Shown here: positions 9,077-59,427 of the stretch, in pieces | Numbering within the stretch: position 1 is the stretch's first letter | How the letters are laid out: every line of letters starts with the position of its first letter | Virus record (IMG/VR): IMGVR_UViG_3300045974_000167 | Span: 19,560-83,559 of that record | Reading direction: 5' to 3' (one strand) | DNA length: 64,000 nt | From: a virus | The notes under the pieces: generated by a model | Seen by the model: the letters and a program-made list of their open reading frames with translations, nothing else | What the model was told of the DNA's origin: nothing | Database searches by the model: none | Made by a program: the position numbers and the translations under genes

Positions 9077-9105
9077 TTGCGCCCTTTAGTTAATTTCTGT
9101 ACCTT
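9077..9105 (+). promoter_or_regulatory. sigma70-type promoter (fixed-AG spacer class)
   Basis: TTGCGC-17-TACCTT; AG at spacer positions 6-7. Confidence 0.55.
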
Positions 9106-9142
9106 CTAAATCGTCGGCAACACCTACCCGCCGCCCAATGGA

Positions 9143-10351
9143 GTGCGCTTGTTTGACCTAGCTTTCAAGGCTCGTCTGCCCATTATCGGTGTGCAGACGG
9201 ATGATACCGCTAACTTCGATAAGGTACTCGCGTTTTACGCGGCCCCTAAGAAGGTGGCTTCTCTTGCGGAGAAGCACAAGACGCTAGGTCCGTACCTCTA
9301 CTGGACTGATGATGAGGATCTGGTTACCACGGATACCTACGAGGAATTCCGCGCCGCAGGATTGTCGCTAATAGTCCTTAATTTCGATACTTCCCGCAAG
9401 AATCCACTGATTTTCGACGGAGGCATCCTCCCGACCCCGGATCCTTTAGTCAGGTATCTTCTATCTGATATGCTAGGGGAAGAATGGGTAGAGCCAATCA
9501 TCCCAGGTCTTCGCGGCCTGTCTCTGAAATCCATTAGGGAAGTCCTACTACTTACCCAAGCACGAGTTAATGGAATTACCCTCGCTGAGATCCGGCGCAC
9601 TAGGTCGTCCCTCGTGGGTGGGGCTACCGGACTCTATCTTGAGGATTCTAGCTATGACTTTTACCAGTGGCCGGAACATCTTAGGGCGTGGTTGGAGCTT
9701 AATAAGTCGTATTTTCACAAGGAAACGCACCACAAGCTTGTACCAAGGGGACTTATGTTTAACGGACCTCCCGGTGTGGGGAAGTCCATGGCGGCTAAGG
9801 CCATCGCAAATACGTTTGGTGTACCGCTATACCGATTCGATATCTCAAGCACTCTCGACAAATACATCGGAGTCTCCGAGGGTCGAGTTCAGAACGTTCT
9901 TGATCTCGTCAACCGAGAAGCCCCCTGTGTTCTTCTCCTAGACGAAGTAGAGAAAATCTTCCAGGGTAAGGAGGATTCGGGGGTAATCAATCGACTGTTA
10001 TCTAAGTTACTGTGGTGGCTTGCAGAACATCAGAGCCGGGTGTTCACGGTTATGACCACTAATGATAAGAGTTCGATCCCTCCCGAGTTGTACCGGACAG
10101 GCCGCATCGATAAGGTGATGCCTATCTCCAAGTTGACGTTCAATGAATCCCGTAAGTTTGCGGCGCAGGTGTTCGAGAGTATCCTAGAGATGAAGCCCGC
10201 TCTAGGACAAGTCCCGACGATTACGAAGGCTCTGCAATCGATTGCGCCCGCAGACTATCATCCTGACTTTCCCCTACTAGCCCACGCCGATGTAACGGAG
10301 GTAGTCGTTAACGAAATTAAAAAGCACGGTTGGGACGTTCCCAAAAAATAA
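9143..10351 (+). CDS. AAA+ ATPase (Ycf46-like)
   Basis: Walker A GPPGVGKS, Walker B LLLDEVEK, SRH TTN...PPELYRTGRID. Confidence 0.9.
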   Translation: MRLFDLAFKARLPIIGVQTDDTANFDKVLAFYAAPKKVASLAEKHKTLGPYLYWTDDEDLVTTDTYEEFRAAGLSLIVLNFDTSRKNPLIFDGGILPTPDPLVRYLLSDMLGEEWVEPIIPGLRGLSLKSIREVLLLTQARVNGITLAEIRRTRSSLVGGATGLYLEDSSYDFYQWPEHLRAWLELNKSYFHKETHHKLVPRGLMFNGPPGVGKSMAAKAIANTFGVPLYRFDISSTLDKYIGVSEGRVQNVLDLVNREAPCVLLLDEVEKIFQGKEDSGVINRLLSKLLWWLAEHQSRVFTVMTTNDKSSIPPELYRTGRIDKVMPISKLTFNESRKFAAQVFESILEMKPALGQVPTITKALQSIAPADYHPDFPLLAHADVTEVVVNEIKKHGWDVPKK

Positions 10352-10355
10352 TCGG

Positions 10356-10384
10356 TTGACAAATCTAGGTTGATTTGTTACGGT
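10356..10384 (+). promoter_or_regulatory. sigma70-type promoter (fixed-AG spacer class)
   Basis: TTGACA-aatctAGgttgatttgt-TACGGT. Confidence 0.75.
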
Positions 10385-10426
10385 GCAAATCGCTGTTGCG
10401 GTACAACCCAAACAATGGAGTGATAC

Positions 10427-11032
10427 TTGAATCCTGCACTTAAGACGGTCGAAGACGTTGAGAAGCACTTTGCTCCCCTCGTTGGGGAGAAGCCGGTGTT
10501 CCGTACGGGGACCGGTCGTCCGTACATCCGCATCGCAAACAAGGGTGATGCCAGCCTTTTCCTCAATGTTGTCCTTGAATCCTTCGAGTACAAGGAGAAG
10601 CCGGTGCGCGGAGTCGTTGCCCGGTTCTTCCAGACAGGGGGGGTGCCTACGTCCTTCGCCCCGCCGCTCAAGGTCCGCGCCGAAGGGAACTTTGAGGGAA
10701 CTAAGCTGTTCCGGCTGTCGAAGCTGAATTTCGCGCTGTGTGATTACGCGCATCCCGCGCCGATCACGGCATGGCACAACCAGAAGGTCACGCTCCAGCT
10801 TGTTGAGTGGCTTCAGGGCGTGGTTCAGTTTGCCTCTGCGACCCCGGTGGGTCCGGAGGTGCTCGCTCAGATCGTAGAGCTGACGATCCCTTCCGCCGAT
10901 AAGGTGTCGGATGCGAAGGAACTGTTCTCTCTCGACCCGTTCGATGGGGACGACAAGAACGCGAAGGCTGTTCCCTCTGAGGGCGATGCCGAAGAGGCTG
11001 ATGAGCCCGACGAGGATGTCGAGGGAGAGTAG
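10427..11032 (+). CDS. Hypothetical protein with acidic C-terminal tail
   Basis: GC3-rich coding pattern; promoter and ATGGAG RBS upstream. Confidence 0.7.
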   Translation: MNPALKTVEDVEKHFAPLVGEKPVFRTGTGRPYIRIANKGDASLFLNVVLESFEYKEKPVRGVVARFFQTGGVPTSFAPPLKVRAEGNFEGTKLFRLSKLNFALCDYAHPAPITAWHNQKVTLQLVEWLQGVVQFASATPVGPEVLAQIVELTIPSADKVSDAKELFSLDPFDGDDKNAKAVPSEGDAEEADEPDEDVEGE

Positions 11033-11143
11033 GCCGTACTGAGGGGCTGCCCACGCTGCACCGCCACGCCGCCCCCCTCAGTTGCAGCCCCCCGCGCCGG
11101 GTCGGGGCTCCCAAAACCCGGCACTTTCTATTTGAGGGGATAG

Positions 11144-12154: not shown

Positions 12155-12163
12155 GGAGAAGTC

Positions 12164-12694: not shown

Positions 12695-12698
12695 AACT

Positions 12699-15051: not shown

Positions 15052-15080
15052 TTGACAAATGTAGACTGTTTGACTATCCT
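15052..15080 (+). promoter_or_regulatory. sigma70-type promoter (fixed-AG spacer class)
   Basis: TTGACA-aatgtAGactgtttgac-TATCCT. Confidence 0.75.
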
Positions 15081-17164: not shown

Positions 17165-17193
17165 TTGACAATCATAGGTCGTTGTCGTACCGT
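17165..17193 (+). promoter_or_regulatory. sigma70-type promoter (fixed-AG spacer class)
   Basis: TTGACA-atcatAGgtcgttgtcg-TACCGT. Confidence 0.75.
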
Positions 17194-18283: not shown

Positions 18284-19575
18284 TCAATCTGACTGAAATC
18301 CCGTTATGGACGGACGCTATGGCTGTCTATCCATACTCGGAAGGTATGGAGGCGGCGTTCACGTTTGTCTCTACCTACGGTGATGAAGTCAAGATGGCTG
18401 TGCGTAGCGGCAACCATATCCTTGTGCCCCGCCGTGTCGCCCCATTGGGTGGGCATGACAAACGGGTGAGTCGGCCGCTTCCTGCAATCGATTGCAAGAT
18501 GCCGCCTCTGGATGTGGAACAGGCTGGGTGTATTTCTTCCTCGCTGAAACTTCTACAGAACGGGGTTGACCACGTTCTAGAGGCCCCTACCGGGTTCGGC
18601 AAGACCTATATCGGTTCGGCAATCGCGGCGCGACTAGGACAAGCGACCCTGATTGTGGTCCCTAAACAGGACTTGATGGATTCTTGGTACAAGACCCTGA
18701 TCAATCTTGTGGGAGTAACCCCGGATGATATCGGAATCGCCCAAGGCGCTAAACTCGACTACAAAGGCAAACGATTCGTACTCGGCATGGTACAAAGTAT
18801 CATCCGACCCGGCAAGTATGAAGAAGATTTCTACCGATCTTTTGGATTGGTTATCTTCGACGAAACGCATCGTATGGCTGCGGAATGTTTCTCCCGAGCC
18901 TGCATGTTGTTTCCTGGTATGCATAGACTCGGACTTTCCGCCACTCCTAAAAGAAATGATGGAAAAACACCTGTCATTAGTGCCCATATCGGGCCTGTCC
19001 TCGTTAGAGGTGTCACCGTCCCCATGAGCCCGAAAATCCTCGTAGAGAGCACCGGTTGCGGGCTCCCTTCGTGGATGGACAACATCGACCCCGGTAGGAT
19101 GATGGCTGCCTACGGGGCGTTGTCCAAGAATACCCAACGTAACGAAAAGATCGTAGGTTTCACCAAGAATGCCTACGGCAAGGGTCGGACTATAGTGCTC
19201 ATGTCAGACCTCATTTCACACCTAAATCTCCTTAGCAACATGCTGATCCAGGCGGGCATCCCTCCCACGGATATCGGGATGTATACCGGCGAGGTTCAGC
19301 GTGTCCTGCTCAAGCCCAACGCCAACAAGCGGGTAATCCTCGCCACCTATGGAATGTGCTCCGAGGGCACAGACTATCCGCATTGGGATACCCTGATCAT
19401 GGTAACCCCCCGCGCTAACATCAAACAGCCGTTAGGGCGTATTCTACGTAAGAAGGCTGGCAAACCCACCCCCGTTGCCCTCGACCTAGTTGATAGCGGG
19501 CGCATCTTCAAGGGCTTCTACTACAAACGCTTGAAGCAATACCATGAGGTAGGAAGCGAGGTCGTTCAGCTATGA
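18268..19575 (+). CDS. SF2 DExH helicase (UvsW/ResIII-like)
   Basis: APTGFGKT, IFDETH, GLSATP.R.DG, SEGTD.P, QPLGRILR. Confidence 0.9.
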   Translation: MEKRLINLTEIPLWTDAMAVYPYSEGMEAAFTFVSTYGDEVKMAVRSGNHILVPRRVAPLGGHDKRVSRPLPAIDCKMPPLDVEQAGCISSSLKLLQNGVDHVLEAPTGFGKTYIGSAIAARLGQATLIVVPKQDLMDSWYKTLINLVGVTPDDIGIAQGAKLDYKGKRFVLGMVQSIIRPGKYEEDFYRSFGLVIFDETHRMAAECFSRACMLFPGMHRLGLSATPKRNDGKTPVISAHIGPVLVRGVTVPMSPKILVESTGCGLPSWMDNIDPGRMMAAYGALSKNTQRNEKIVGFTKNAYGKGRTIVLMSDLISHLNLLSNMLIQAGIPPTDIGMYTGEVQRVLLKPNANKRVILATYGMCSEGTDYPHWDTLIMVTPRANIKQPLGRILRKKAGKPTPVALDLVDSGRIFKGFYYKRLKQYHEVGSEVVQL

Positions 19576-20018
19576 GCAACGATACTCTGACCACCACCAA
19601 GGTTTCTTCGTTTAAGAAGTGGTACGACGCTAACAAGGAAGAATTCGCAAAGAGGCGGCGCGAGAGATACCATGCTGATGAAACTTTCCGGAAGAATGCC
19701 CTCGAAAGGTCAGCCTCTTACCGTAGAGGTAAGAGGGTTGAGGAACGCGGCCTCCCTCCCGGCTATTCTGTTACTCACTCGGATGCTTGCGAGAAACTGG
19801 GCATTGAGGCACCCGTTCTGCGAGCCTGGGCACGAAAGAACTACTACCCCGAACCCTTCCAGGCCAACAAGCGTATCTATTTCACAGAAGGGCAGATAAC
19901 CCTGCTAACGCACTTAGTTGCATTCTTCCAGATGCAGCCACCGCATCGTCGTCTTGGGCCTATTGCTCTAAAGAAACTAGACGAACTTACCTCCTACATC
20001 CACGCGAACTGGAACTAG
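19572..20018 (+). CDS. MerR-like HTH DNA-binding protein
   Basis: SDACEKLGIEAPVLRAWARKNYYPEP...RIYFTE. Confidence 0.65.
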   Translation: MSNDTLTTTKVSSFKKWYDANKEEFAKRRRERYHADETFRKNALERSASYRRGKRVEERGLPPGYSVTHSDACEKLGIEAPVLRAWARKNYYPEPFQANKRIYFTEGQITLLTHLVAFFQMQPPHRRLGPIALKKLDELTSYIHANWN

Positions 20019-24472: not shown

Positions 24473-24501
24473 TTGACTTACATGGCGCGGTAATCTACGA
24501 T
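24473..24501 (+). promoter_or_regulatory. sigma70-type promoter; TGG variant at the fixed spacer position
   Basis: TTGACT-tacaTGGcgcggtaatc-TACGAT. Confidence 0.7.
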
Positions 24502-26035: not shown

Positions 26036-26064
26036 TTGACAATCCTAGAGTGTTGATGTAATCT
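26036..26064 (+). promoter_or_regulatory. sigma70-type promoter of the modification cluster, with a TGCA-N6-TGCA palindrome at 26018-26031
   Basis: TTGACA-atcctAGagtgttgatg-TAATCT; CCATGGAGGGA RBS. Confidence 0.75.
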
Positions 26065-27025: not shown

Positions 27026-27599
27026 GGATGATACAGAAACCCTGTACGTTGTCTCTGCCCATGAGCACGGGGCAACGTCCAAGGCCCTGTTCAGCCCAGA
27101 GGAATTGCACGATTCCCGTGTAGAACGCGCAGGGGAATTGCTCAAGATGGCGGCGGTGCAGGGGGATACTGTCCTAGATGTTGGATGCGGCTATGGCTCG
27201 CTAATTCCACACGTTCCGGCAGGTGTTAAGTATGTGGGGATGGACCCCAATCCAGCTTTTCTCAAAAAGGCAAGCGAGGATTACCCATCTACCTTGTTTA
27301 TCCACTCTGGGATTCCCCTGGCCGATAACATACCACCACCACTCTGCGATTACGTCGTTAGTCTCGGAGTTGCGTGTCACCTCATGTCCGGTGTCGCGTC
27401 CCTTGTTTGGTACGCTCATAAGCTCCAGTTAATGGCCCGTAAGGGCATCATTATCGAGATTCAAACACCAGCGTACAACGGCTCCTTCACCAAGTTTAGC
27501 ACGGAAGAGATCGTGCAGGCATTCTGCCAACGCATAAAAGCAGAGAATACACTATCCCACCCGAAGGATAGCGCCTCGACTTACCTGTTCTTCCTATGA
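26985..27599 (+). CDS. Class I SAM-dependent methyltransferase
   Basis: VLDVGCGYG, YVGMD, DYVVSLGV motifs. Confidence 0.8.
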   Translation: MSSPMSASPTSFFRDDTETLYVVSAHEHGATSKALFSPEELHDSRVERAGELLKMAAVQGDTVLDVGCGYGSLIPHVPAGVKYVGMDPNPAFLKKASEDYPSTLFIHSGIPLADNIPPPLCDYVVSLGVACHLMSGVASLVWYAHKLQLMARKGIIIEIQTPAYNGSFTKFSTEEIVQAFCQRIKAENTLSHPKDSASTYLFFL

Positions 27600-28198
27600 G
27601 CGTCCTAATCGTTAAAGCCTCACCCATCGAAAAGAAGTACAAGACAATTGCTGCCGATCCCCCGTGGGCTGAACACGGCGGCGGCAAGGTGCAGCGGGGG
27701 GCTGACCGGCACTATGACCTGATGAAAACTGCTGAGATTGCGGCGTTTGGTATGCGCGTGCAACTGATTGCAGATAAGGACGCCCACCTCTACCTTTGGG
27801 CCACGAACAACCACCTAGAGGATGCTCTATCCATCCTCCCCGCGTGGGGATTCAAGTTCGTGACAATGATTACGTGGGTCAAGGAAGGTAAACCCGGCCT
27901 GGGTCAATACTTCCGTGGACTTACTGAGCATTGCATCTTCGCCAAGCGCGGACAACCCACCTACCGCGTCGGAATCAACGGCAAGAGGGCACAAGGGCTT
28001 ACTGCACTTCTAGATGAAGGTCGCGGCCTCTGGTTCAAGGCCAAACGTGGCAAGCACTCTGAGAAACCTGCCCAGTTATACACTTGGGCACGTTCCGTTA
28101 GCCACGGACCCTACCTTGAAATGTTCGCCCGTGTCGCCCGCCCAGGTTGGGATAGCTGGGGAATCGAGGCCCCCACTTCTACCAAGGTCAATCTATGA
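27596..28198 (+). CDS. MT-A70 family N6-adenine methyltransferase
   Basis: ADPPW, HY.LM, HLYLWATN, WGF..ITWVK, GLGQYFRG.TEH, HSEKP, LEMFAR..RPGWDSWG. Confidence 0.92.
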   Translation: MSVLIVKASPIEKKYKTIAADPPWAEHGGGKVQRGADRHYDLMKTAEIAAFGMRVQLIADKDAHLYLWATNNHLEDALSILPAWGFKFVTMITWVKEGKPGLGQYFRGLTEHCIFAKRGQPTYRVGINGKRAQGLTALLDEGRGLWFKAKRGKHSEKPAQLYTWARSVSHGPYLEMFARVARPGWDSWGIEAPTSTKVNL

Positions 28199-30516: not shown

Positions 30517-31053
30517 ATGCCTTACGCCGACCCGGTAAAACGTAGAGAAGCGAATCGTCTTTGGGCGCGTAAATACCGCGAAAACAATAGAGAACTTGTT
30601 AATGCTGCGGCCAAAGAATACTACCACTCCAACCCCGCTTATCGTGCCAGGGCCATACAACTAGCAACCGCTAGGCAAGAATCTAACCCAGAAGCTAAAC
30701 GCGCCAGCGGCCAACGCTATTATCAGAATCATAAAGTAACACTTCGTAGTTACTACAAATCATGGACAAATACTCCTGATGGAAGACGTATTCGTAGGGA
30801 ACTAGAACAACGTAGACACGCATTAAAAACCGGTGCTCCCGGTGAGTTTACCAAGGAACAGTGGTTACAAAGAAAAAGCCTTTGGGGTGGAAAATGTTGG
30901 CTAAACTTGAATGGGTGCGCGTCCGTGGCAGGCTCTATTGACCATGTAATACCGCTTTCTAAGGGTGGAACCAATTGGCCCGCTAACTTGCGACCGGCTT
31001 GCCGAAGTTGCAATAGCAAGAAGAATGCACAGGATTGGCGGAAATATGTCTAA
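30517..31053 (+). CDS. HNH endonuclease
   Basis: IDHVIPLSKGGTNWPANLRPACRSCNSKK; own TATAAT just upstream; lower GC. Confidence 0.88.
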   Translation: MPYADPVKRREANRLWARKYRENNRELVNAAAKEYYHSNPAYRARAIQLATARQESNPEAKRASGQRYYQNHKVTLRSYYKSWTNTPDGRRIRRELEQRRHALKTGAPGEFTKEQWLQRKSLWGGKCWLNLNGCASVAGSIDHVIPLSKGGTNWPANLRPACRSCNSKKNAQDWRKYV

Positions 31054-38961: not shown

Positions 38962-39079
38962 CTGCAACTGATTGCAGGACGGACGCCCCAAAATGTAGGG
39001 GTGTCCGTCTTTCGTTTTGCAGAACGTTGTGCGATGCTCACCATCTCACGACGCCCGCACACCCATGGAGGGATTATTA

Positions 39080-40295: not shown

Positions 40296-42070
40296 ATGGG
40301 CAATGACTTCCCGAACGACCTCGTTGGTTCTTGGGCTACCTACCTTACCGCTTCCAAGGGCGAAGTCCCGTGCAAGATTCGCGGCGCACACGCTACGAAG
40401 GGTGATACCTACTTGGTGGTCGAGATTGCTTCCGGCCCCAACAAGGGCGAGCTTGTGACCGTCCCCGCCTTCCGCATCAAGATCGGATTGTCTGACGAGG
40501 CGCGAGCCATCCTCACCAAATAAACTTGTCAAACGTAGCGTGACCTGCTACAACACAATCTGACGTTGCACACAATCCATGGAGGGACGATGTTCTTTTC
40601 GATGCTCGACAGGTACAAGGACCGGATGGGGGACTACAATGCCCCCCCGCCTAACTTCAAGGAAGTCACTGCTGACGAGTTTGCGAAAATACCCCATCTT
40701 AGTGGGGTGCCGGACAAGCTCGAATACCGGCAGATTATCCTCACAGACAACCGTAGCCCTCTGATTGACGGGGTGTTGCATTGGTACAACGACGGTCACG
40801 GGTGGATGATCAATCAAGTGTACTGGAACAAGGAAAAGTCCCAGTTCGAGTACACGCTGCGCTTCTACACCTTCTCTATTTGCGAGCACGACTTCGGCAA
40901 GGACGAAGGTACCGCGATGTTTGAGCACAAGTTCACCTGCAAGAAGTGCGGCTATACGTACGGATACGACTCAAGCGGATAACCAACACAAAGGGGTGCG
41001 TCTTGAACAAAGAGAGCCGAGCCCTGTGGTTTCTCGTCGGTGCGATAGCAATCATTCTTCTAGAGGTCGGCGGCGCGGCTGTAGCCATGGGGACGTATGA
41101 CCCTCCTCCTGCTACCGCAGACTACGGAAGAAACATCGGACGAGAGGTAGTGGTCTACATCGATGAGCATGTCCCCGGCAACAAGCCGGTAGTTAAATAC
41201 TCCGGTTGCCGCCCTGAGGGGCTCGCATTCCGGCGCAAGCCACCCGAAACCACAAAGGCTAAGAACAAGTAATGTCGGATAACTTACCGTTCGGAAGTGA
41301 CGGACCCATCCGTAAGATCATCTCCAAGGAACCCTTCATCGACAAGATGTTCAAGATTGAACGCTTTCGGGTCAAGTTAGAGTGCGGTCATACCGTGTTT
41401 CGGCGGAAGCGGATGTTCCCCAAGGGTACCTTCATCAAGTGTGAGAAGTGCCCAGGCACGAAGGATCTATGAAACCCTGCACCCATTCTGCGATGGAAGC
41501 GCGTGAGGCATACGCAGTTGGCGTGTGCCCAAACTGTCTTGAGGCAGATATTGCCTTTCTGCGGGCTGCACTAGCGGACAAGGAAATGGAGATCGACGTT
41601 CTGCGGCGCTACGGAAACAAAGACTGTACTAGACAGGCGGATGAGGAGATAGCTAAGACTCGCGTAGAGAACTTGCGTGCCCGCTTCGGGAGGTAGGGAC
41701 TTATGACCACCAAAGCTAGGCCCCTCGTTACCAAGGTTCGTTGTATGTGGTGTCCTGCTGGGCATGGAGGAAAGAATACTGTTCTGTGTAAGCACTGCGG
41801 GAACACCGGGTTAACCGACCATGTTCCTTCGTGGAATAAGGCAAAAGGTAAAAAATGAAAACGCATATCGAGCTTCCGGAAGTGAACGAGTATTTCTGCC
41901 GTTCTATTCCGTATGGAACCCAAGCCCATATCTCCTACGAGCAGTTCCTAGCTACCGTAAACAAGGGATCCATCAGCGGGCGACTGTCCAGCCGCCCCAG
42001 CAGCAACGTCATAGTACCCTACTGCATCACTTGTCTTAGGCTGGCGAAGGCTCGATGCTACTCTAGCTGA
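40296..42070 (+). other. Run of small hypothetical CDSs (40296-40523, 40590-40982, ~41003-41272, 41272-41472, 41469-41696, 41855-42070)
   Basis: RBS-preceded or coupled ORFs, several with Cys pairs; promoter TTGTCA-17-TACAAC at 40526. Confidence 0.55.
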
Positions 42071-42155
42071 CACGCCCCAAATGATACTTCGCACTCCCAA
42101 GGGAAATGTGCGAATGTCAAATCATTGATGCGGTGAAACCCCATGGAGGGATTTA

Positions 42156-42517: not shown

Positions 42518-42599
42518 GGTGTCCTGGCGGAAATGGTAGACGCGCTAGCCTTAGGAGCTAGTGCCGAAAGGCGTGAGGGTTCGATTCCCTCGGACACTA
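42518..42599 (+). tRNA. tRNA-Leu (anticodon TAG)
   Basis: GGTGTCC/GGACACT acceptor; CTAGC-CTTAGGA-GCTAG anticodon arm; long variable arm; TTCGATT T-loop. Confidence 0.93.
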
Positions 42600-42605
42600 C
42601 TTCAC

Positions 42606-42687
42606 GGGACTGTGGCGAAACTGGTAGACGCATGGGACTTAAAATCCCCCGCCGAAAGGCATCCCGGTTCGATTCCGGGCAGTCCTA
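42606..42687 (+). tRNA. tRNA-Leu (anticodon TAA)
   Basis: GGGACTG/CAGTCCT acceptor; CTTAAAA loop; variable arm; TTCGATT. Confidence 0.92.
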
Positions 42688-42691
42688 TCTT

Positions 42692-42767
42692 GCCTCCATA
42701 GCTCAGTTGGTAGAGCAGCGGGCTTTTAACCCGTTGGTCGTAGGTTCAAATCCTACTGGGGGTACCA
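42692..42767 (+). tRNA. tRNA-Lys (anticodon TTT)
   Basis: GCCTCCA/TGGGGGT acceptor; CTTTTAA loop; TTCAAAT; encoded CCA. Confidence 0.95.
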
Positions 42768-42773
42768 TTTTTC

Positions 42774-42848
42774 AGTCCCTTAGCTCAGAGGTAGAGCGAG
42801 GCCCTTACAAGGCTTAGGTCGTCGGTTCGATCCCGACAGGGGCTACCA
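42774..42848 (+). tRNA. tRNA-Val (anticodon TAC)
   Basis: AGTCCCT/AGGGGCT acceptor; CTTACAA loop; TTCGATC; encoded CCA. Confidence 0.95.
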
Positions 42849-42900: not shown

Positions 42901-43728
42901 ATGGGGGTCACCTTGATTCGTGTGATAGATAAACCCGTAGTTGTCGATGAACCCGCCGTAGTTGCACAGTCCTCCGTACATTACGACGAGCCCTCCGAGG
43001 ATATCCCAGCACACCCCTGCACGCATAATAACCTCATGCGTGTCAAGATGTTCGCTGGAGAATCTGTAGAGGAAGTAGAGGAAAAGGTCAATGCGTGGCT
43101 TTTTAAGCACTTCATTGTCAGCCCCCTCGCTATCAAGATGTCGGCGCGTCCTGGGATGATTGCTGTCCTGATTCAATACGAGTACGACCACGTTCCCAAG
43201 AAGAAGGGCGAGGATGAGGACTGACGCCCCAAACGGCGGCTTGCACCCCGGAGATACATCCTCTATTGTCGCATCATCGACACGGCGCAAACACCATGGA
43301 GGGAAAATGCCAGAACCGATGAAGCTCTCGATTAACATTGACGCGCAGGTTCGTCAGTTGGGGGAGCGGGAGTTTGAATGCTCTGTCGTGCTCACAGGTG
43401 ACACCGGCAAGCCGCATCCCGTGCTAGTTACGCGGCGCGGCGGTTCTGCTGGACAGGCTCTTTCGATTGCTGTATCTTGGGCGTTCGACTACGTTAAGAC
43501 CATGGAGGGAACATGAACGTTGCTACCTTTGCTGGGTTGTTCACGAATGCGAAGAGGATTGTCTCGCTGATCGGCGTCACCGAGAACAGGATTGATACCG
43601 CCGCCCGACTTCGGAAGATCGCAGGTGACGACCTTCTGATGCTTGACCTGTGCAGGGCGATTGATTCCCTGGACCTGCACCTTCGTACCGCTGGTAATAC
43701 CGACCTTGAAATTACCGTGAAGGAATAA
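42901..43728 (+). other. Three small hypothetical CDSs (42901-43224, 43307-43516, 43513-43728)
   Basis: RBS-preceded ORFs; promoter TTGCAC-17-TATTGT at 43241. Confidence 0.55.
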
Positions 43729-45087: not shown

Positions 45088-45129
45088 CGCAACTGATTGC
45101 AAACCATAGAAACATGCTGTATTGTCAAA

Positions 45130-45540: not shown

Positions 45541-45609
45541 GATTGAAACTGATTGCAACCCGCAGAACGATGCGGTAACGTCAAACTATCGACGGTCCAT
45601 GGAGGGATT

Positions 45610-46536: not shown

Positions 46537-46758
46537 TGGGGATGGCATCAGGGGATGCTGTTGCTCTTGCCATCTATAGCGCCGCCGACCGGTGCGGAAT
46601 GACCAAGAATGAAGCGCATGATCTTGTTAACCACGTTCTACGTAGTCGTAGGTCTGAGTTTCCTCCGGGGTTTATGCCGTAGATGAAATCGGTTGCACTC
46701 TGTAGAAACATACCGTATTGTCAAATCATTGCGGCGGTAACAACCCATGGAGGGAACG

Positions 46759-47961: not shown

Positions 47962-48062
47962 CCTGCAATCGATTGCAAAGATGATTGTGCTTGTCAAACG
48001 TAGAATCATGTGCGACCATGCACCATCAACGACGCACCAACGGTCCATGGAGGGACTAACCG

Positions 48063-48519: not shown

Positions 48520-50435
48520 ATGGGACGCCACCGCAAACTGACGATGCGCGAACAGATCGAGGATCAGCGGCTCACCATCCACGATCTACAGGTCACCCGT
48601 GACCGGCTCTGGCACGCCATCCACGAGAACCTGAGTAACTACCCCAACAACGAGGGCTCGATTCGTTTGAGGGCGGTTATGAACGAGAATGCCTACTGTT
48701 CCTGCGGGCGCAGGGCTAGTTGCTGGGCGAACGGAACCGGACCCAAGATGTGTGAAACCTGTGCTTGTTCCTAGGGAGAACCATGGTTGCTACCTTTTCA
48801 GTCGAAGTCGAGTATGACCCCGCGCTTCTGAACATCCGCGAGGTGAAGGAAGTTCTCAACAAACTGATTGAGAATGCCACTCAGGACGGCGGCGACCTCA
48901 TGGATGGCATCGCCTCCATTAGTGGATTTACCCACGAAACCCCGAACAGGAAGGTCGGTGGTTAGGTGCCCTTTTACACCCTCAATATCGATGGAAAGAC
49001 CATCACCAGTTGGGAAACCCCCAAATACTCTTGTGGCGAGGTAAGTACAGAACCCAACCTCTGTCTAAGTTCTGGGTATATCTGCACCCGCAGGAAAGGT
49101 CACAGCGGTGATCATATCGCTCGCGGACCCAAGCGACAGCTAATTGAACGCTGGCCCCGACGCCCCATTTGAAACCATGTGCAATGCAGCATAACCTGCT
49201 ACATTTGCACCATGACGTTGCACCCACAACACGGAGGATTCACATGGAAACGAACGGACTTGGTGGACACGCTGCTGGACAGGAATACCACGCGCAGGAA
49301 CGCACGCTCCGCGTCTACTGGGACGATGATCGGCTGGACAAGATCACTCGCCTTCGCCTCCTGAGCGATCCCTGCTGTAGCTGGTGGGATGTCAAATACT
49401 GTCACGGCGTTCTCGCAGATGGTACGCTGGTGAATGTAACCCTTCCATTCTCACAGTTACGGAAGGGCGGCATCAACGCTCAGATCATCAAGTACGCCCG
49501 GGAGGACAAGGTGTTCGCCAAGGGCCTGGGTGTCTTCGACGCGATTTCCACTCTCTGCTAGAGGTTAGCCATGTTCAAGATTCTTGCTGCGGTGCTGGTT
49601 GCTTGTTCGTTGATCGGATGCGGCTCGGAAGTCGAGGAACCCGCCCCCCCTACTCCTGAGGTTGTAGTTGTCCGTGAGGTCTGCACAGTCTATCTCCTCC
49701 CTGACGGTGGCGTGGTTTGTAAGTGCGAACCCAAGCCCCTGGTGACTCCATGAAGGTAGAAATCTGCTGGACGGATTGGCGGGATGCCAACGAACCCTCG
49801 TATCTTGTGGAGTGCGAGGTGTCTCCGGGTGAACCTGCTTCTCGGGATTGCCCCGGGGCAGACCCCGAGGTCGAGATCCTAGCGGTGTGGGAGGATAGCC
49901 CTAGAAAGGTAGGGGAACCGCGAGTTAAGGTCTTCCGGAAGGACATCGAAGAGTACCTCGACGCCAACCCAGACGAGATTTACGACGACGCCGTGTGCGA
50001 AGCTGACGACAAAGACGCAGGACTGCGTTCTGCCGCTGACGACCTCAGAAGCGATGAGGCAAGGGGAAAGTAATGGCTCTGAAAATCAGCATCATGGAGG
50101 ATGAGGCGTTCCGCAAGGAATTGCAGAAGTTTTGCCAGGAACAGTTGCGGCCCATCGCCAGGGAGGAAATCGCCAAGATTCTCACTCCCGGCTATGCCAA
50201 GGAAGAACTGACGAAATACATCAAGGGCGAACTTACCAAGAAGGCTCTAGATGAACTTCGTTGGAACATCTACCACAACATCAAGAACACGGATGCGTTC
50301 CGAGAGGAGATGAAGAAACACATCACGGAATACATCAAGTACGAGCGTAGCGCCGCCGATATGACGCTGCAAGGCAAGCTCGATGAACGCATCAAGAATC
50401 TGATCCACATAACCCTGCGGGAGATGTTCAAGTGA
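48520..50435 (+). other. Run of small CDSs (48520-48774, 48783-48965, 48966-49172, 49244-49561, 49571-49753 lipoprotein, 49750-50073, 50073-50435)
   Basis: Coupled or RBS-preceded ORFs; 49571 has a signal peptide with an LIGC lipobox. Confidence 0.55.
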
Positions 50436-50867
50436 AGACCTACCAAGTGACCCTCGACATCAACACTAATGAAGTAGAGCCGCCGCAGAATTGGGATTGG
50501 GTAACCCTGCTCGATCTAGACGTAGCCAAGGGTGAGGGGGTAGACGTTGCAGATGTGCAACTGATTGCAGACGATAGTGACTGCCCAGGAGAAGGGACGA
50601 ACGAGTAACGACGCCCCAAATGTTCCGCACACGTTTGCAGGATGTTCTGACATCATGCATCAATGACGACGCGGAAACACCCCCTGGAGGCCAAAATGCC
50701 GGTGCCGACCGTTGAGGAAACGAAGTCTGGTACGAAGGTTGTTCCCTTCTTCTGCTGCCCCATGGTGACGCTCACGATGTTGAGCGGGCGACCCCTGGCG
50801 CACACGGATGCGTGCCCGAACAACCCCAAGAACAAGCGGTAACTCGCTGCACCCCATGGAGGGACAC

Positions 50868-52561
50868 ATGACGCTCGCAGAGAAAAAGGCGAAGATCCAG
50901 CACCTTCTCGCCACGAACAACACCGCAGTCGAGGTCGCTCTGACCCGGCTCCTTGCTCGTCAGACGAGTGATGAGCGGTACAGCCACACGACCGTCCACG
51001 CCAACAACCGTGGGTTCAGCGGGCGCGATGCCGAGTTCGGCACCTCTCTCGCGGAATGGATCAACAAGGGACACTCCCTTTCCTACCGCCAGATGATCTA
51101 CGGCCGCAAGATGGTGATGAAGTATTGGCGGCAACTGATCGAAGAGGCTGATGCCCGCACCCCCGGCTGGGCTGATCCCGTCGCCATGGACGACTTCGAC
51201 GGTGTGCAGGTCGAGCTTGACGCCGAGGCCGCGTTGGAGGCGCAGGCCGAACTCGCGTACATGAAGATGCACGGCAGCGACCCCTTCTAGGCTTTTGGGC
51301 GGCGTGCCCCTTGCCATCCCTGCGGGGTCTATGGCAAGGAGAAAGGAGGTGCGGTGAGTGTAGAACTACTGCTGCTAATAGTTCTAGCCATGACAATTGG
51401 ACGAGCCCTGAATTCAAAGCGGAAGTAACGACAACCCCTTTGATACATTCTCCGTTCAAGTCTGCTGTGCGATGATGCACCATCAACGACGTACCCACAC
51501 CCCATGGAGGGATTATGAGCAACCCCATCGAAGCGATCATCAACAAGATCCAAAGCGAAATCGAATACGCGAACGATGCAATCGATGAGGCAAGGCTCGA
51601 AGCACGGTTCGATCCCCTGATTCCCAAGGCGGAACGCGCCGACACCTGCAAGCGCGCCCGCATCGACGGCATCGAGGGAACGATCAAGCACTACGACCGG
51701 CTCAAGTCGATGAACCGGATGCGGCTGAATCAGGCAGCCAACCACTTCCTCAAGTCGGCCGGATTCAACTGGGACGCGACCGCCTCCAAGTCGCGGTCGT
51801 AACGCAAACGACCTGGGGTAAGTCGCTAAACTGCCCCTGCCTTTCCAACCCACACAGCGGAGGATTCACAATGACGATCACCATGAAGAACTGGCTCGTG
51901 ACGGCGCGTGATCTTGGCGAGGAGAATCCCTACCTCGCCCCGGAATGCCGCAAGTCGGCGGCGTGCCTGAGCGGGCAGATCACCCACCACCCGGAGTTGG
52001 TGATCACGAAGGACGAGAACCGAGTCACGACCTCCTCCATCGTCAATGTCGATGGACGCATCGTGACGACGTTCTCCGGGCGCAAGTACAAGCTGTACGG
52101 TCGTCCCGACCCCCGCTTCATGGAGTTCCTCGGCAGCAAGGAACTGCCCTATAACCCCCGCAACCCGCTGGCACCGCTGGTCGGTGCCGGTTTCATCGCC
52201 ATCGGAGGCTGACATGGGATTCACGACCATCGCAACGACCGCAGACGGTAGCCGCTACATCGTCAAGTACCACGACGGCGTTTCGTGTGTGGTGTGGGGC
52301 GAGATGTCCGGGTATCGCGGACTCAAGACCAAGCACCAGGGCACGATGTCCCTGCGTGTCGCAGATGTCACCCTCGCCACCATCGAGATGACGCCCATCA
52401 TCGTGGAGGAACTGCTCCAACAGTACCTCCGGTCGGAACAGAAGAAGGGCAAGTACATCGCGTGGCGTGGGCGTCGTTACTCCATCTATAACTCCGAAGC
52501 GGAGTTCCTGAAGTACATGGCGATGCGTGCTGCCACCCGCAACATCCAGGGTCGGTACTAG
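50868..52561 (+). other. Putative early genes (50868-51290, 51515-51802, 51871-52212, 52214-52561)
   Basis: GC3-rich ORFs, each with a strong RBS; promoters with -10 at 50651 and 51471. Confidence 0.6.
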
Positions 52562-52806
52562 TACGAGATTATGGGGAGCTGGCAGGAGAGAACTAGAAAG
52601 GCTAGTGCAACTGATTGCAGTGAGTAAGGGCGGCGGCAGTAAGGAAGGGTGAAAATGCAGCACAAACGACCCTTCTGATACGTTGTAACGCACAGAATGT
52701 TGTGCGACCATGCATCATCGGTTGACGCGGAAACTGCCGGGGGGTACGGATTGGCCGTAATCCAACGGTATTGACCGAGAGCTTGACCGACCAATGGAGT
52801 GACACA

Positions 52807-53467: not shown

Positions 53468-53803
53468 GGCTAGTTAGCAGGTGAGATAGACTAGAAATTC
53501 CCGGCCCGCGTCACCCCGTTAAGCTAGTAGACCATTATTGATACGAGGCTCGTACAAGCACGCAAAAACCCTACCCGCTACCCCCCCACCACCCCGACCC
53601 GCCAAAGGTCACCATGAGGCTCCTGCGCGTTCTAATAGGAATCCTAATTGCCCCCTCTGACCTCACTTCCGACCTAGAGCGTTTCTGCAATCGTGTGCAA
53701 AGTATAGGGGGCAGTACGCACGCCCCAAATGTTCCCACCCACCCCACAGAATGCCCTGCTACGGTTGACCATCAACGCCGTATTCAACCAATGGAGTGAC
53801 CCA

Positions 53804-55920
53804 ATGGCGAACAAGATGAATCACCGGCACGGCGGCGGCAGGCGGAACGAGGGAAAGTCGGAAGTCGATCTTCGCTTCCTCCTTCGTCCCGAGCCCCTGG
53901 CACTCGATCAGATCACCGAGGGTCTGGACGACGCCTTCATCGATTCCGAGATGTTCGACACCGGATGCTGCGCGGAGTGCGAGGACATGGCCCGCCGCTA
54001 CTCCACCGACAACAACGAGGGATGAAATGAACGAGCACGAGACTCCAGCACATGCACCACACACGGACGGACAGCTAGTGAGGTGCCCCAAGTGCAAGGG
54101 TCTGAGCACCGTGCAGGGTACGCACATCAGAACGTACTGCTGTTGCAGCAAGTCGCCGCCAGAGGGCAGTCTCATGGTACCCTACAACCGAACCCCCATC
54201 CGGAGGAAGTAAATGCACGGACGAGAGATGTGCGAACGCCACGAACCCGACATGAGGAAGTGTCGGTTCTGCACGGATTTCACCAAGGAACCGTGCTACA
54301 AGCCCAAGCTCATTGATCCTCCAAAGGACAAGACCAATGGACGACCCTAAGTACATCTACATCGACACCCATGAGGCAGGCCCAGACTTCTTCATCTTCC
54401 CTAACTGGTACGACCACAAGCGGGTGGCTGAGTTTGTGGGCGGGGAAGTGCTGAGTGCTGGATTCGTGTGTTTCAACGTGCCCAAGCCATTCTGTCATGG
54501 GAAGTCTACTTCTCTGAACGTCGGAGCTACCGAGTTCGCCACGAAATACTTGAGGAAGAGGTACGGGATCAACGAGGACTAACACCCCAAAATCCTGCAC
54601 ACGATTGCAGAACGGCGTGTTACCTTGACCATACGGCAATGACGCCGTGGGAAACGGAGAGACAATGGCACGGTACTTCATCGACCACAAGACGGGGCTG
54701 ATCACGGAGATCACCCTGGACGACATCGCCCCCGCCGGTCCCTGGCAACTCGCGGCCTGCGAAATGCGGGAAGTCCAGGCCCTCAGGAACGACGAGTTCT
54801 GCCTGACCGACCAGGGTGTGCTCCTCCGTGACGACGCGGGACAGATCATCGACGGGCTCCACATCGTCCTCAACCGCTACGGGGTTGGGACGACCTACGG
54901 ATACCCCGAAGAGAACCTCATCGAGTTCTTCAACTAGTACGAGATTCCAGCGCATTACGCGCATACGACCCACTAGCTAGGGAGGCAACAGTGCTGAGAA
55001 TCGACTTCGCAGAGCGTTGTGCATGGCGAGCCATGTACCTCTCGTACACCAAACACGACAAGTCCGGATACAAGTGGCAGCACCAGTTCTTCCACATCGG
55101 ATTCGACCCCAACCAGAATAGCGGGAGGCCGCAGATTTTCGGCGGCGCGTGGGGGCTGGCCTGGAGATTCAATATCCCCCACATCCGTTGGAACATGAAG
55201 ATGAACAGCATCACACGCTTCCTCTACCGCTGGCAAAGCAACATCCTGTTCCGCCTCGACGGACGCTTCAAGTGCTGGCCTGGGCAGACCCCCCGCCCCT
55301 AAATCCCGCAAACGATTGCAAGACGGTCTTAGACCGCCCTGTTACTGTGACTGTGCCGCAACCACGCGGCACCAACGGAGGCACAGACATGAGCAACTAC
55401 TGCGTCGAAACCTACCACGCCAGGCTGTCCGACTCGGTGATCACGGACATGGACGGAGACACGGCAGAGGAACTGAACGACGAAACGCTCGCCTACGCGA
55501 ACGAGCTGTTTGAGGCAGCCAAGGCGAACTGCCCGCCCGACGAATACTGCGAGGTTTGGGTTGCCCGCTTCCGGCCCAACCTGCCCGCCCAGCCTGTCTA
55601 CATCTTCACCTCCCTGGTGCATTAGACCGGGGATCGACGCCCCAAACGTCTGCACACGATTGCAGACCGCCGTGTTACGGTGACTCTGCCGCACTTGCGG
55701 CCACCAACGCTGGAGACACGCAATGGACACCATCACGCTGACCCGGCACGAAGCTGACCATGTGGTTGCGGCCCTCGCCACCCTGCACGCCATCTTGGGG
55801 AAGAACTACGAAACCGGCCACCCCAACGCCGAAGAGGACAGGAAGTGGGTGGCGGGCATCCTCCAGAACTTCAACGAGAAACTCGGAAACACCACCGTTT
55901 CCTGGCTGAACATCGAGTAA
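53804..55920 (+). other. Small putative early CDSs (53804-54025, 54027-54212, 54337-54582, 54666-54937, 54991-55302, 55389-55625, 55723-55920)
   Basis: Repeated promoter-RBS-ORF cassettes (-10 at 53760, 54621, 55343, 55676). Confidence 0.55.
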
Positions 55921-56203: not shown

Positions 56204-56249
56204 AAAAAGAACCCCAAATCGGCGGCGCGTCTGCTGCTGCGAGGTAGAC

Positions 56250-56510: not shown

Positions 56511-57201
56511 ATCGAGATTCACACCCGCCCGCCCCCCTATGCTTGCACAGATAGGGGGCTTTTCACGTTAGTATCTAGCAAAAATCGGCGGCGGCGTCTG
56601 GTCCCCTTAGTATAGAAGATATAGAGGACAATAGGAGGGCTAATAGGGATACTAAAACTAGGGAAGCAATAGGTGGAATAGACCTGTAATCTCGATCACT
56701 TAGGTCTACCCTTTAGACAGTCCAGAATCTCCATAAATCCACCCAATCTAGCTAAAAAGCTGCCTCTTGCTCACTCAAAATCCTAAAAAGTCGAGACAAG
56801 ATTGGGTCGGGCACGAGACTATGGCGAGCTAGCGAGCACAGACAGAAAGATAGATCGAGACTCTAGCAAGCAGGCTGGAATAGATAGATAGACGAGCAAG
56901 TGGGAGGGCAGCAAGGCAAGAAAGGTAAGAAAGGCAAGACTGGGCTTGGCTCTCCCTCCCTATAGGAGATTGCGCTCTGAAAAGTTGAGAAAGTGTAGTT
57001 AGCGTTCAGACCCCTTGTTTTTAGTAGTGTAGAAAACACGATTTAGTAGCAAGACTGCTCCAACCATGCGCCGCCGATTCTCTACTCGTGCAGAAAGACG
57101 AGAGTGGTTGGAATGAACTACCCAAATGTTCTGCAATCAATTGCAGAACGCCCTGCTATGCTCCTTCCATGACGTACCACCCAAACGACGGAGACACTTC
57201 A

Positions 57202-57508: not shown

Positions 57509-57579
57509 CATGATCCACAAGTACGGCTGTTAAGCAAAATGCCCTCGCCCACCGTGGCGGGCTTTTCTGCAACTGATTG

Positions 57580-57851
57580 CAGACAGCACGAGACTCTAGG
57601 TGGCTGGGAGGAAAGAAAGATAGGAAGGCTGGTACCCAGTACGAGACTATGGCTAGCTGGGTAGGAGTAGCAAGAAAGATAGAAGGAGCAGCAAAGCAAG
57701 ACAAGAAAGGAAAGCAAGAAAGAAGTAGAAAGACTGGAAAGACGAGAAAGAAAGACAGCAGGAGAAAGACGAGAGTGAGATCGAGACTATGGCTGGGTAG
57801 GTAGGTGAGCATAGCGAGGTAAGGCAGGCTGGGCGAGCGAGGCTGGACAAG
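57580..57851 (+). repeat. AG-saturated purine tract with CGAGACT(A/C)T repeats
   Basis: For example AGAAGTAGAAAGACTGGAAAGACGAGAAAGAAAGACAGCAGGAGAAAGACGAGAGTGAGA; ends abruptly at 57851. Confidence 0.8.
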
Positions 57852-58343
57852 ACCGTTTTTTCAAAATCGACCGACCTGCTCTGTCTACTTTGCGTCGGCA
57901 CGCCTTTTTCCCGTGCCAAAACGAACGCCCCTTTCCGTGTCGTGTGCGTTCGGTACGTGTCCCGTGTCTTTTGCCCCACCCAACATGACCCATCTGTTTT
58001 CATGCACTTACCTCGTTTCTTGCGTGTACCATGCGTCTTTTGCCCCAACCATGCCCCACCCCCCCGCGCCCCTTGACGTTCCAACATGTTGAAATCACTG
58101 CAAACGATTGCGCCCGTGTTTCGGCACGGTCGCTGCAATGACTCCGGAATGTCGTTGTTGAATCTTCGGTCCCGCCGCTGAAAATCGGACCTGCGAACGA
58201 CCGACCCGGCCCCCGGCAATCGACCCGAAACCCGAAAAAACGTTCTCGGAACGTGCCTTTGCGGTGTTTCGGCATACCCCAACGGATCGACCGTTGAACC
58301 TTGAACGGCGACCGAAACCCGTTGTATCCATACGGAAAATCAA

Positions 58344-59150
58344 ATGAAAATCTCGAAATCGGAACGTCGCGCCCGCCTCGTTGCCTCGAACGCCGCTCTG
58401 CATGCTGCGGCGGTCGCTGCGGTCGTTGCGGACCCCGAATCTCCCGAAACCGAATCCATCCTCATGATGAACGCCGGCGCCGATGTTCCGCCGGTCACGC
58501 CTGCGGATGTCGCTGCGGCGTCCGCTGATGCCCCGCCATGCGACGCACCGGTCGCGGTCGATGCTCCGGCCCCGGACGCCCCTGCGGACGCCCCTGCGGT
58601 ACCGGTGCGCTCCGACGTTCGATACTCCGCGCCTCGACTGTCGATGCCGGTCGGAACCCTGATTCCGGTCGGTGCGAATCACACCGGTACCCGCGGCATC
58701 TCCCGGCGGTACCTGTACGCGATTCCCGGCGGTGACTTCCTCGCGACCGGTGATTCCCGCCTCCCCTCGTCCCTCGAATCCATCGACCTTGCCCTGTCGA
58801 TGATCGACGACGCTGCGACGCTGATCGAACGCACCGATTCGACCACGTTCGCACCGACGGTCGATGCCTGCGGCTTGCGGTACGGTGCGTCACCGCGCCA
58901 TGCAACGACACACGCCGCGATGCGACTTGATGCGCATGACTTCGCGGTCTCGTTCACGGCCCGCGTGATCGATTCGGTCCCGCCCGGACTGCGGCCCGCC
59001 TCGTGCCATTCGGTCCTGTCGCGCCTCCCCGGCGCACGGTCGAACCACGCCGATGCGTCGGCCCGCCTCTCCTTCGTTCGTACCATCGCGGTGAACGTTC
59101 GGACGCTTCTCGCTGCTGACGCTGCGGCCGTGACCGCTCCGACGGTCTAA
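58344..59150 (+). CDS. Hypothetical protein encoded entirely without AG; candidate first-expressed factor
   Basis: 268 aa with no Trp or Gln and only two Lys (AAA); basic N-terminus, Ala/Pro/Asp linker, globular C-domain; strong terminator directly after the stop. Confidence 0.72.
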   Translation: MKISKSERRARLVASNAALHAAAVAAVVADPESPETESILMMNAGADVPPVTPADVAAASADAPPCDAPVAVDAPAPDAPADAPAVPVRSDVRYSAPRLSMPVGTLIPVGANHTGTRGISRRYLYAIPGGDFLATGDSRLPSSLESIDLALSMIDDAATLIERTDSTTFAPTVDACGLRYGASPRHATTHAAMRLDAHDFAVSFTARVIDSVPPGLRPASCHSVLSRLPGARSNHADASARLSFVRTIAVNVRTLLAADAAAVTAPTV

Positions 59151-59158
59151 CGTGACTT

Positions 59159-59214
59159 GACCGACGGTTGTGCATGCCTTCCATGACATGCGCAACCGTC
59201 GGTCTTATTTTTTT
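59159..59214 (+). terminator. Strong intrinsic terminator
   Basis: GACCGACGGTTGTGCATG / CATGCGCAACCGTCGGTC 18-bp stem followed by TTATTTTTTT. Confidence 0.85.
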
Positions 59215-59398
59215 CGCCCGTTGGGATGTGCTCACATGAGGGGGGATATTTTGGTGTGATTTGACAAACGGGAATCTGACTTCCCACGCAAGCGGTTGCG
59301 GGAGGGGAAATGTTTAGGGTGAGGGGAACAGGGTGGGGGGTCGTTGGGGGACAGGAGGAAAAATTTTAGGGGCTCCTTTTCGACTTAGATGAAATGAA

Positions 59399-59427
59399 TT
59401 GACAAATGTAGGGTGCTTCGGTAATGT
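59399..59427 (+). promoter_or_regulatory. sigma70-type promoter (fixed-AG spacer class)
   Basis: TTGACA-aatgtAGggtgcttcgg-TAATGT. Confidence 0.75.

Follow-up and report, generated by a model that had tools for sequence, protein, structure and literature searches.

The DNA analysed here (the window) covers the final 64 kb of a virus record of 83,559 bp, IMG/VR record IMGVR_UViG_3300045974_000167, which was assembled from a pond metagenome and is rated linear and 87% complete. All genes in the window are on the + strand. Predicted promoters of the sigma70 type stand before many small early genes that share a common ribosome-binding-site cassette, and all 23 that are recognisable carry the dinucleotide AG at -24/-23, in the spacer between the -35 and -10 hexamers (Table 1). 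The same dinucleotide is nearly banned from the rest of the promoter, beginning near -55, and from the transcribed leader, and it is missing altogether from an island of about 1.37-1.39 kb that lies directly upstream of the last listed promoter. This report concerns the invariant AG, the ban that surrounds it, and the agent or agents that might read both.

An invariant AG in the promoter spacer

Alignment columns are counted here as +n or -n from the AG, which itself occupies -24/-23 of the promoter. The original prediction placed an AG at 23 positions, with its G 11 nt before the -10 hexamer. The dinucleotide is present at all 23, and in every case it lies 13 nt upstream of the -11 adenine (-11A; column +13), which is also conserved in 23/23. 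These two features share the top rank of conservation; below them come -7T (column +17; 22/23), -12T (column +12; 17/23), the -35 TTG (columns -11..-9; 13/23), and the extended -10 TG dinucleotide (columns +9/+10; 14/23). Spacer length is 17 bp. Fourteen promoters had been credited with a clear TTG; the count is 13, and fourteen is the number that have the TG.

The two partial elements are distributed unevenly: TG occurs in 10/10 promoters without TTG, and in only 4/13 with it. The AG occurs in both classes. It is therefore probably obligatory, not compensatory, and the suggestion that it makes up for a weak -35 does not hold, since it is equally invariant in the 13 promoters with TTG and the 10 without; the compensating element is TG.

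Several neighbouring positions also are constrained. Pyrimidines occupy -27 and -17 in 23/23 promoters and -25 in 20/23; a purine is found at -22 in 19/23, and G at -19 in 16/23. The local consensus from -27 to -17 is Y-n-Y-A-G-R-n-y-G-n-Y, and the column consensus from -5 to +1 is A-T-T-G-Y-A-G. The letters following the AG are A (14/23), A (11/23), and Y (18/23), along with the constant pyrimidine at -17, but the pentamers vary. Judged from helix geometry, the AG probably faces the polymerase, the -35 TTG and the -15/-14 TG each being a single helical turn away from it.

An alignment of the 23 sites revealed no consensus RNA fold around the AG. The exact spacing to -11A, the lack of a conserved RNA fold, and the location upstream of the start site together argue that the AG acts in DNA, as part of the promoter. 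The evidence supports -24/-23 as a functionally constrained and positive promoter component, as invariant as -11A, and to this extent the original prediction was right.

Could the alignment have been forced by the AG itself? Four approaches indicate otherwise. First, the generic pattern TTG[ACT][CA]A-N17-TAnnnT, searched on both strands, has eight matches, all of them on the + strand. Of these, one is a shifted copy of a listed promoter; the seven independent matches all have AG at spacer positions 6-7 (chance about 3e-9, given a genome-wide AG frequency of 0.061). Second, leave-one-out matrices with the AG columns zeroed were used to rank 167,022 positions on both strands. Twenty-one of the 23 sites each rank within the best 11 of these positions, the two weak members being those at 9088 and 55331, and the best local offset is the predicted register in 23/23. 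Third, unguided alignment with MAFFT joins the 23 sites without gaps through the -10, and the only fully conserved columns are AG and -11A. Fourth, the extended -10 anchor TGn[T/G/C]AnnnT alone places AG at the expected offset in 9/28 intergenic matches on the + strand (P about 5e-5), compared with 6.9% in coding sequence and 0/22 on the - strand.

An expectation-maximization (EM) motif finder, run on intergenic regions (widths 40, 20, and 24; masked and unmasked), failed to pick up the promoter motif. What it ranked highest was the ribosome-binding site CCATGGAGGGA, the palindrome CTGCAA-N4-TTGCAG, or junk. Unbiased support therefore comes from the four approaches above.

A matrix without AG columns detected no AG-less family members above - strand noise, which argues against a hidden population of AG-less promoters. 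The one exception that had been proposed, with TGG in place of AG (24473), exists as a sequence but scores no better than noise (Table 1). Isolated AGs are frequent genome-wide (144 on the + strand and 148 on the - strand), so isolation by itself does not detect promoters.

Nor are the sites simple copies of one another. The 23 form 16 clusters at 55% identity; mean pairwise identity is 31% for the leader, 36% for the upstream part, and 31-40% over promoter and leader segments. Six pairs are close copies, exceeding 70% identity in the -22..-1 segment. Given this low identity and the 16 clusters, descent alone explains neither the invariant AG nor the AGs that are absent.

Two observations concern the flanks of these promoters. 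The sequence ACGCCCCAAA precedes the AG by a fixed 24-25 nt, which places it near -49 relative to the start (42075, 43227, 50614, 53723, 54585, 55640, and 38986), mainly at promoters without a -35; in all there are ten copies on the + strand and one on the - strand. It may be an UP-like or activator element marking a second promoter class. On the other side, a GGAG ribosome-binding site follows 46-56 nt after the promoter AG in 20/23. The ribosome-binding sites are near-identical and all on the + strand: CCATGGAGGGA in 12 copies; CAATGGAGTGA in 6 exact copies; and the 10-mer CAATGGAGTG in 9.

Table 1. Predicted promoters and other features of the window (AG, first position of the dinucleotide unless a range is given; TG, extended -10 dinucleotide; rank, leave-one-out rank)
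Feature	Position	Strand	-35	TG	-10	AG	Remarks
Promoter	9077-9105	+	TTGCGC	no TG	TACCTT	9088-9089	Weakest member; rank 65
Promoter	10356-10384	+	TTGACA	TG	TACGGT	10367	Rank 1
Promoter	15052-15080	+	TTGACA		TATCCT	15063	
Promoter	17165-17193	+	TTGACA		TACCGT	17176	Long AG-free leader, to +64
Exception candidate	24473-24501	+	TTGACT		TACGAT		N17 spacer; TGG replaces AG; leader without AG until ACGGAG; score 9.8, noise level
Promoter	26036-26064	+	TTGACA		TAATCT	26047	Second AG at +2
Promoter	39010-39038	+	none	TG	GATGCT	39021	AG inside TTTGCAG
Promoter	40526-40554	+	TTGTCA	TG	TACAAC	40537	
Promoter	42089-42117	+	none	TG	GAATGT	42100	ACGCCCCAAA 25 nt upstream
Promoter	43241-43269	+	TTGCAC		TATTGT	43252	
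Promoter	45097-45125	+	TTGCAA		TATTGT	45108	-35 is right half of 14-bp palindrome
Promoter	45553-45581	+	TTGCAA		TAACGT	45564	-35 from palindrome half
Promoter	46693-46721	+	TTGCAC		TATTGT	46704	
Promoter	47991-48019	+	TTGTCA	TG	GACCAT	48002	Rank 1
Promoter	49177-49205	+	none	TG	TACATT	49188	
Promoter	50628-50656	+	none	TG	CATCAT	50639	AG inside GTTTGCAG; ACGCCCCAAA upstream
Promoter	51448-51476	+	none	TG	GATGAT	51459	
Promoter	52683-52711	+	TTGTAA	TG	GACCAT	52694	AG-free leader to +84
Promoter	53737-53765	+	none	TG	TACGGT	53748	ACGCCCCAAA upstream
Promoter	54598-54626	+	none	TG	TACCTT	54609	AG is final two letters of palindrome TGCACACGATTGCAG
Promoter	55320-55348	+	none	TG	TACTGT	55331	Weak member; rank 60
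Promoter	55653-55681	+	none	TG	TACGGT	55664	AG is palindrome end
Promoter	57134-57162	+	none	TG	TATGCT	57145	AG is end of TGCAATCAATTGCAG
Promoter	59399-59427	+	TTGACA		TAATGT	59410	Directly downstream of AG-free island
AG-free island	57851-59221						
Island gene	58344-59150	+					268 aa; ribosome-binding site ACGGA
AG-rich block	57580-57850						Island flank
G-run block	59240-59380						Island flank
MerR-like regulator gene	19572-20018	+					
MT-A70, GT4, and two GT2 genes	27596-28198, 31046-32533, 60077-61313	+					
tRNA cluster	42518-42848						Leu(TAG), Leu(TAA), Lys(TTT), Val(TAC)

Depletion of AG in promoters, leaders, and an island

The region from the -10 to the ribosome-binding site was predicted to lack AG and DGG, and this is largely borne out. 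Columns +2 to +43 contain 3 AGs where base composition predicts 52 (z -8.9). DGG is reduced to 9 from an expected 32 (TGG, GGG, and AGG are all depleted), and CGG is enriched (27 vs 12.5). When base frequencies specific to each column are used, the leader has 2 AGs for 22.8 expected (P 3.5e-8). In 20/23 promoters, the next AG after the invariant one is that of the Shine-Dalgarno GGAG.

Upstream of the start site the depletion is weaker. From the UP region to the discriminator, with the invariant AG excluded, there are 19 AGs versus about 45 expected; observed and expected numbers are 17 and 28 for the UP region, 1 and 5.9 for the -35 hexamer, and 1 and 7.1 for the 3' spacer. The two regions also differ with respect to CT, the complement of AG: it is depleted in the leader (4 vs 16.9), but not upstream of the start.

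Promoter-less intergenic regions have normal AG content, and the observed/expected ratio for the 64-kb window, 0.91, is near normal. The upstream limit of the clean zone is 22-35 nt before the AG, even in intergenic regions of hundreds of bases; its downstream end reaches the Shine-Dalgarno sequence whatever the length of the leader, including the two long leaders marked in Table 1 (17176 and 52694). It had been argued that the melted region must stay unmodified, but the AG-free zone extends far past the -11..+2 bubble and exceeds the polymerase footprint. An invariant AG within a strand-specific ban on the same dinucleotide is confirmed as real, and its statistical support is very strong.

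The island obeys a similar rule on a larger scale. Its + strand lacks AG entirely, where 58 would be expected, and likewise TGG and GGG, but it has many CGG and keeps 77 CT. One word rule (AG, TGG, and GGG excluded; CGG allowed) is common to the island, the promoters, and the leaders. This much stands of the view that AG and DGG are equivalent words; within the promoters themselves that equivalence has a single case. The island gene is conserved, with two metagenomic homologues (84% and 56% identity). Scans of metagenome, viral, and genome contigs for the homologues' DNA found no relative. Its product belongs to no Pfam or PHROG family, and the fold model is of low confidence (pLDDT 59.6). The original prediction proposed this protein as a candidate activator, but nothing in these results indicates a DNA-binding activator.

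The island is flanked by an AG-rich block on one side and a G-run block on the other. A repeat, CACGAGAYYNTGG...GCTGGCAGGAGAG...CTAGA, occurs at several gene ends (37606, 47467, 52552, 56802, and 57577-57800) and stands in tandem in the AGGA-rich block right before the island. It could be a C-terminal coding motif shared by genes, or an RNA element.

Palindromes, gene content, and relatives

A second sequence feature, the palindrome (C)TGCAA-N4-TTGCA(G) of 14-16 bp, has 43 genome copies (1.8 expected), mostly intragenic, and spans window positions 606-62843 (for example 5197, 18483, 22641, and 57132). The nearest phages are distant: the large terminase (TerL) shares about 49-63% identity with its counterparts on uncultured contigs 72-98 kb long, and about 50% with those in Stenotrophomonas DLP5-like, Vibrio, and Rhodobacter siphophages. 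A megablast search with 20 kb of the sequence gave zero matches among phage records. Two pond-metagenome runs yielded assembled contigs that match the window exactly. The comparison covered four relatives with complete or near-complete genomes (in what follows, relatives go by handles from G001 to G005). A scan of viral contigs for the palindrome word led to the relatives G002 and G003; its other matches were mostly chance singles.

The palindrome lattice is kept in G002, G004, and G005 (25, 26, and 42 copies). In G005 and G004, the right end of the palindrome lies 8 nt upstream of the -35 in four promoters each. This suggests that the palindrome is a regulator site.

The relatives (TerL 49-63% identical) have similar promoters and ribosome-binding sites. 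For instance, G005 has 12 TTGACA-N16-TAnnnT promoters and the same CAATGGAGTGA ribosome-binding site; these promoters show neither a conserved spacer AG nor AG depletion (33 vs 35). In G001, TTGACAAACTAG occurs in 3/6 promoters, in a different register and with AG-rich surroundings. None of the four relatives contains a long AG-free stretch. Invariant AG, AG/DGG ban, and island thus form a package specific to this phage.

Gene content also differs. The phage encodes replication and packaging functions (large terminase, AAA ATPase, DnaB-like and ResIII helicases, RecA, primase, and RuvC), along with a SAM methyltransferase, WbqC, a PIG-L deacetylase, ParB-N, and thymidylate kinase. It also has genes of modification type: an MT-A70 DNA methyltransferase, one GT4 glycosyltransferase, and two GT2 glycosyltransferases. 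Tblastn identified no counterpart of the island gene, the MT-A70 methyltransferase, the GT4, or either GT2 in the four relatives, whereas WbqC, the SAM methyltransferase, and PIG-L have counterparts in G002. A MerR-like transcriptional regulator and a four-tRNA cluster complete the list of features in Table 1; the depth of the tRNA cluster in metagenome contigs is very high owing to its sequence conservation.

Possible readers of the AG

Our preferred reading, to which we give an even chance, has two parts: the AG is a spacer element that RNA polymerase, or a factor bound to it, recognizes by sequence, and a separate ban on AG operates at the RNA level in leaders. The sites would be served by the sigma70-type RNA polymerase of the host in the mix-and-match manner, with the extended -10 TG acting where the -35 is missing. 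The AG would be read as ordinary duplex DNA, in one orientation, either by the holoenzyme (through the beta' zipper / zinc-binding region, which overlies the spacer) or by a small factor that rides along with it. Further AGs within the polymerase-contacted region, if on that strand, would compete for register; this proposal would account for the depletion upstream of the start being weaker and strand-specific. The ban on AG and DGG in the leader would be a second constraint, imposed on RNA, whereby the Shine-Dalgarno sequence supplies the first AG of each transcript, and words resembling it or its complement are avoided. That the leader ban is strand-specific, tracks leader length, and removes CT as well points to reading at the RNA level. 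The enzyme CmdT, taken up below, is a precedent for an agent of this kind.

Searches of the phage proteins for sigma region 4, MotA (MotCF), and AsiA domains found none. With these missing, and with AG in every recognisable promoter, the host holoenzyme or a bound factor is the simplest reader. The original prediction favoured instead a phage activator. Promoters that fire first are among those that carry the AG, so an activator expressed by the phage could not be the sole reader unless it were injected.

In its near-invariant -11A and -7T, its 17-bp spacer, and its use of TG in -35-less promoters, the family resembles sigma70 promoters of the mix-and-match kind. To our knowledge, the textbook sigma70 model includes no conserved base at -24/-23, and no dinucleotide banned over the footprint and leader. 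The closest described spacer element is the Z-element, a sequence from -24 to -18 that acts through the beta' zipper and helps promoter opening (Yuzenkova et al. 2011, PMC3173786). In Thermus, E. coli, and Bacillus, it can support -35-less promoters whose -10 is strong or extended; its pentamer occupies spacer positions 9-13, stopping 4 bp short of the -10, and single substitutions have effects of less than 2-fold (PMC3173786). Like the Z-element, the phage sequence is a mid-spacer block of sigma70 promoters, and the letters AAC or AAT together with the -17 pyrimidine partly resemble the Z sequences AACCT, AACAT, and AATGT. The registers differ, however: the phage AG is at spacer positions 6-7, with half-conserved letters at 9-13, which puts the Z-element 2-3 bp further downstream. 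The Z-element also is loose and dispensable and compensates for a missing -35, whereas the phage AG is strict, at 23/23 regardless of the -35, and AG avoidance is not described around Z-elements. The phage element is filed as a new, unusually strict variant of spacer promoter element, and not as a Z-element.

Several considerations weigh against the preferred reading. We know of no RNA polymerase so strict on two spacer bases, and the published Z-element is loose, compensatory, and displaced. Relatives with the same ribosome-binding site and palindromes lack the AG, so it does not reflect a polymerase preference held throughout the lineage. Two separate causes are needed for what is one word rule, and the AG-free island is left unexplained; that one phage has the island, the leader ban, and the promoter AG together hints that a single agent specific for AG may lie behind them. 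Finally, the promoters and their start sites are predicted from sequence.

Other promoter classes were considered and rejected. By inspection, sigma54 (-24 GG / -12 GC) does not fit, as the G-to-G spacing is 9, not 11, and neither do promoters of the extracytoplasmic function (ECF) type (AAC...CGT), as the AAC columns are unconserved. Middle promoters of the T4 MotA/AsiA type do not fit either, since no MotCF or AsiA domain was found and the AG is located at -24/-23, not -30. The enzyme DarT1 ADP-ribosylates guanine in single-stranded DNA, but no motif is defined for it (PMC11543638), and so it provides no specific support.

Alternatively, the AG could be the core of an operator or half-site in the spacer, bound by a separate activator or repressor of phage or host. 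One candidate would be a protein that binds the 16-bp palindrome CTGCAA-N4-TTGCAG, given that its right end is TTGCAG: the AG ends TTGCAG or TGCAG in six promoters, three of which (54609, 55664, and 57145) have the full palindrome in the same register, and the consensus for columns -5 to +1 is similar. The promoter linkage of the palindrome in G005 and G004, and the MerR-like regulator encoded by this phage, also fit. Even so, the other 17 promoters have only Y-n-Y-A-G in common, too little for a stand-alone protein site, and the palindromes occupy several different registers relative to promoters. The face of the spacer at -24 is probably directed at polymerase, and the first promoters to fire cannot await a protein made by the phage. 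We consider this alternative unlikely.

The modified base at the centre of the original prediction fares somewhat worse, and we rate it distinctly improbable. According to this alternative, AG and KGG are the words of a DNA-marking enzyme, and one mark at -24/-23 licenses transcription. Modification-dependent promoter use does occur: GcrA reads N6-methyladenine (m6A) in Caulobacter, and the middle promoters of SPO1 need hydroxymethyluracil. In both, as here, a short promoter word beside the -35 and -10 serves as licence; their marks have been shown chemically, whereas the phage AG is known as sequence. Moreover, GANTC, the CcrM methylation site in the GcrA system, is palindromic and the AG is asymmetric, and no GcrA domain was found in the phage. 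A mark would account for the single word rule in promoters, leaders, and island, for an AG that is obligatory rather than mix-and-match, and for the fact that, of five lineage members, this phage alone has the AG and island package and it alone carries the MT-A70, GT4, and two GT2 genes. But a duplex mark should affect both strands, and upstream of the start only the + strand AG is depleted; neither the undepleted CT there nor the 77 CT in the island is what a mark predicts. The depletion also follows the leader to the Shine-Dalgarno sequence, past polymerase contacts, and whole-genome AG is near normal. As for the enzyme, MT-A70 is the sole candidate base modifier, and adenine methylation cannot cover TGG or GGG; a guanine-modifying gene (TGT/DpdA) and a GcrA-like reader were not found, which is weak evidence in a record that is 87% complete.

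A broader version, a long shot in our judgement, makes AG together with TGG and GGG the target of a single system, specific to this phage, that marks or reads these words. Island and leaders would escape this system, the one promoter copy at -24/-23 would be the licence, and transcription would need either the marked base or an AG-specific phage factor. A dinucleotide banned elsewhere would then form the basis of a promoter code.

Less probable still is a signal confined to RNA, in which an RNA enzyme of phage or host, specific for AG, would process or modify read-through transcripts at the lone AG, and leaders and island would be escaping it. Strand specificity, dependence on leader length, and a transcription unit wholly free of AG all fit a reader of single-stranded RNA. 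An mRNA modifier with dinucleotide specificity exists: CmdT, of the CmdTAC defence system, ADP-ribosylates GA in single-stranded mRNA, hits Shine-Dalgarno regions, and blocks translation (PMC11618068). As a one-strand reader of a purine dinucleotide, CmdT is the best precedent for a ban confined to the coding strand of leaders and of a whole transcription unit, although its word is GA, not AG or KGG, and it would explain avoidance, not an AG required in untranscribed promoter DNA. Such an enzyme gives no reason for the exact 13-nt distance to -11A in 23/23, and no conserved RNA structure surrounds the AG. The AG-free part upstream of the start is absent from the primary transcript, and other coding regions of the phage are AG-rich, so that escape of the leaders would not protect the messages.

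Simple ancestry, in which a functionless AG was inherited from one promoter cassette copied many times, is barely credible: the common ribosome-binding-site cassette of the small early genes and the six similar pairs speak for it, but mean identity is 31-40% in 16 clusters, other spacer columns are near random, two adjacent neutral columns would not remain 23/23, and new AGs should have appeared in the leaders (52 expected, 3 seen). The arrangement does recall the PeSL elements of T4-type phages, which are repeated promoter cassettes ahead of small early genes; here too, many small early genes each have a similar unit of promoter, leader, and ribosome-binding site. The phage units are about 31% identical outside functional positions, however, so recent copying is no explanation.

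What emerges is a two-letter spacer signal that equals the -11 adenine in invariance over 23 independent promoters and is nearly banned elsewhere in promoter and leader. We know of no description of a banned word with one required promoter copy, or of an agent that reads such a word. If polymerase or a riding factor reads the AG, then this phage would add an obligatory element to those known in promoters, and its 23 sites would be a clean natural set on which to test how spacers are recognized. If, on the other hand, promoters, leaders, and the AG-free gene are linked by one AG-specific agent, then the regulatory DNA of the phage would be written around a dinucleotide-reading system.

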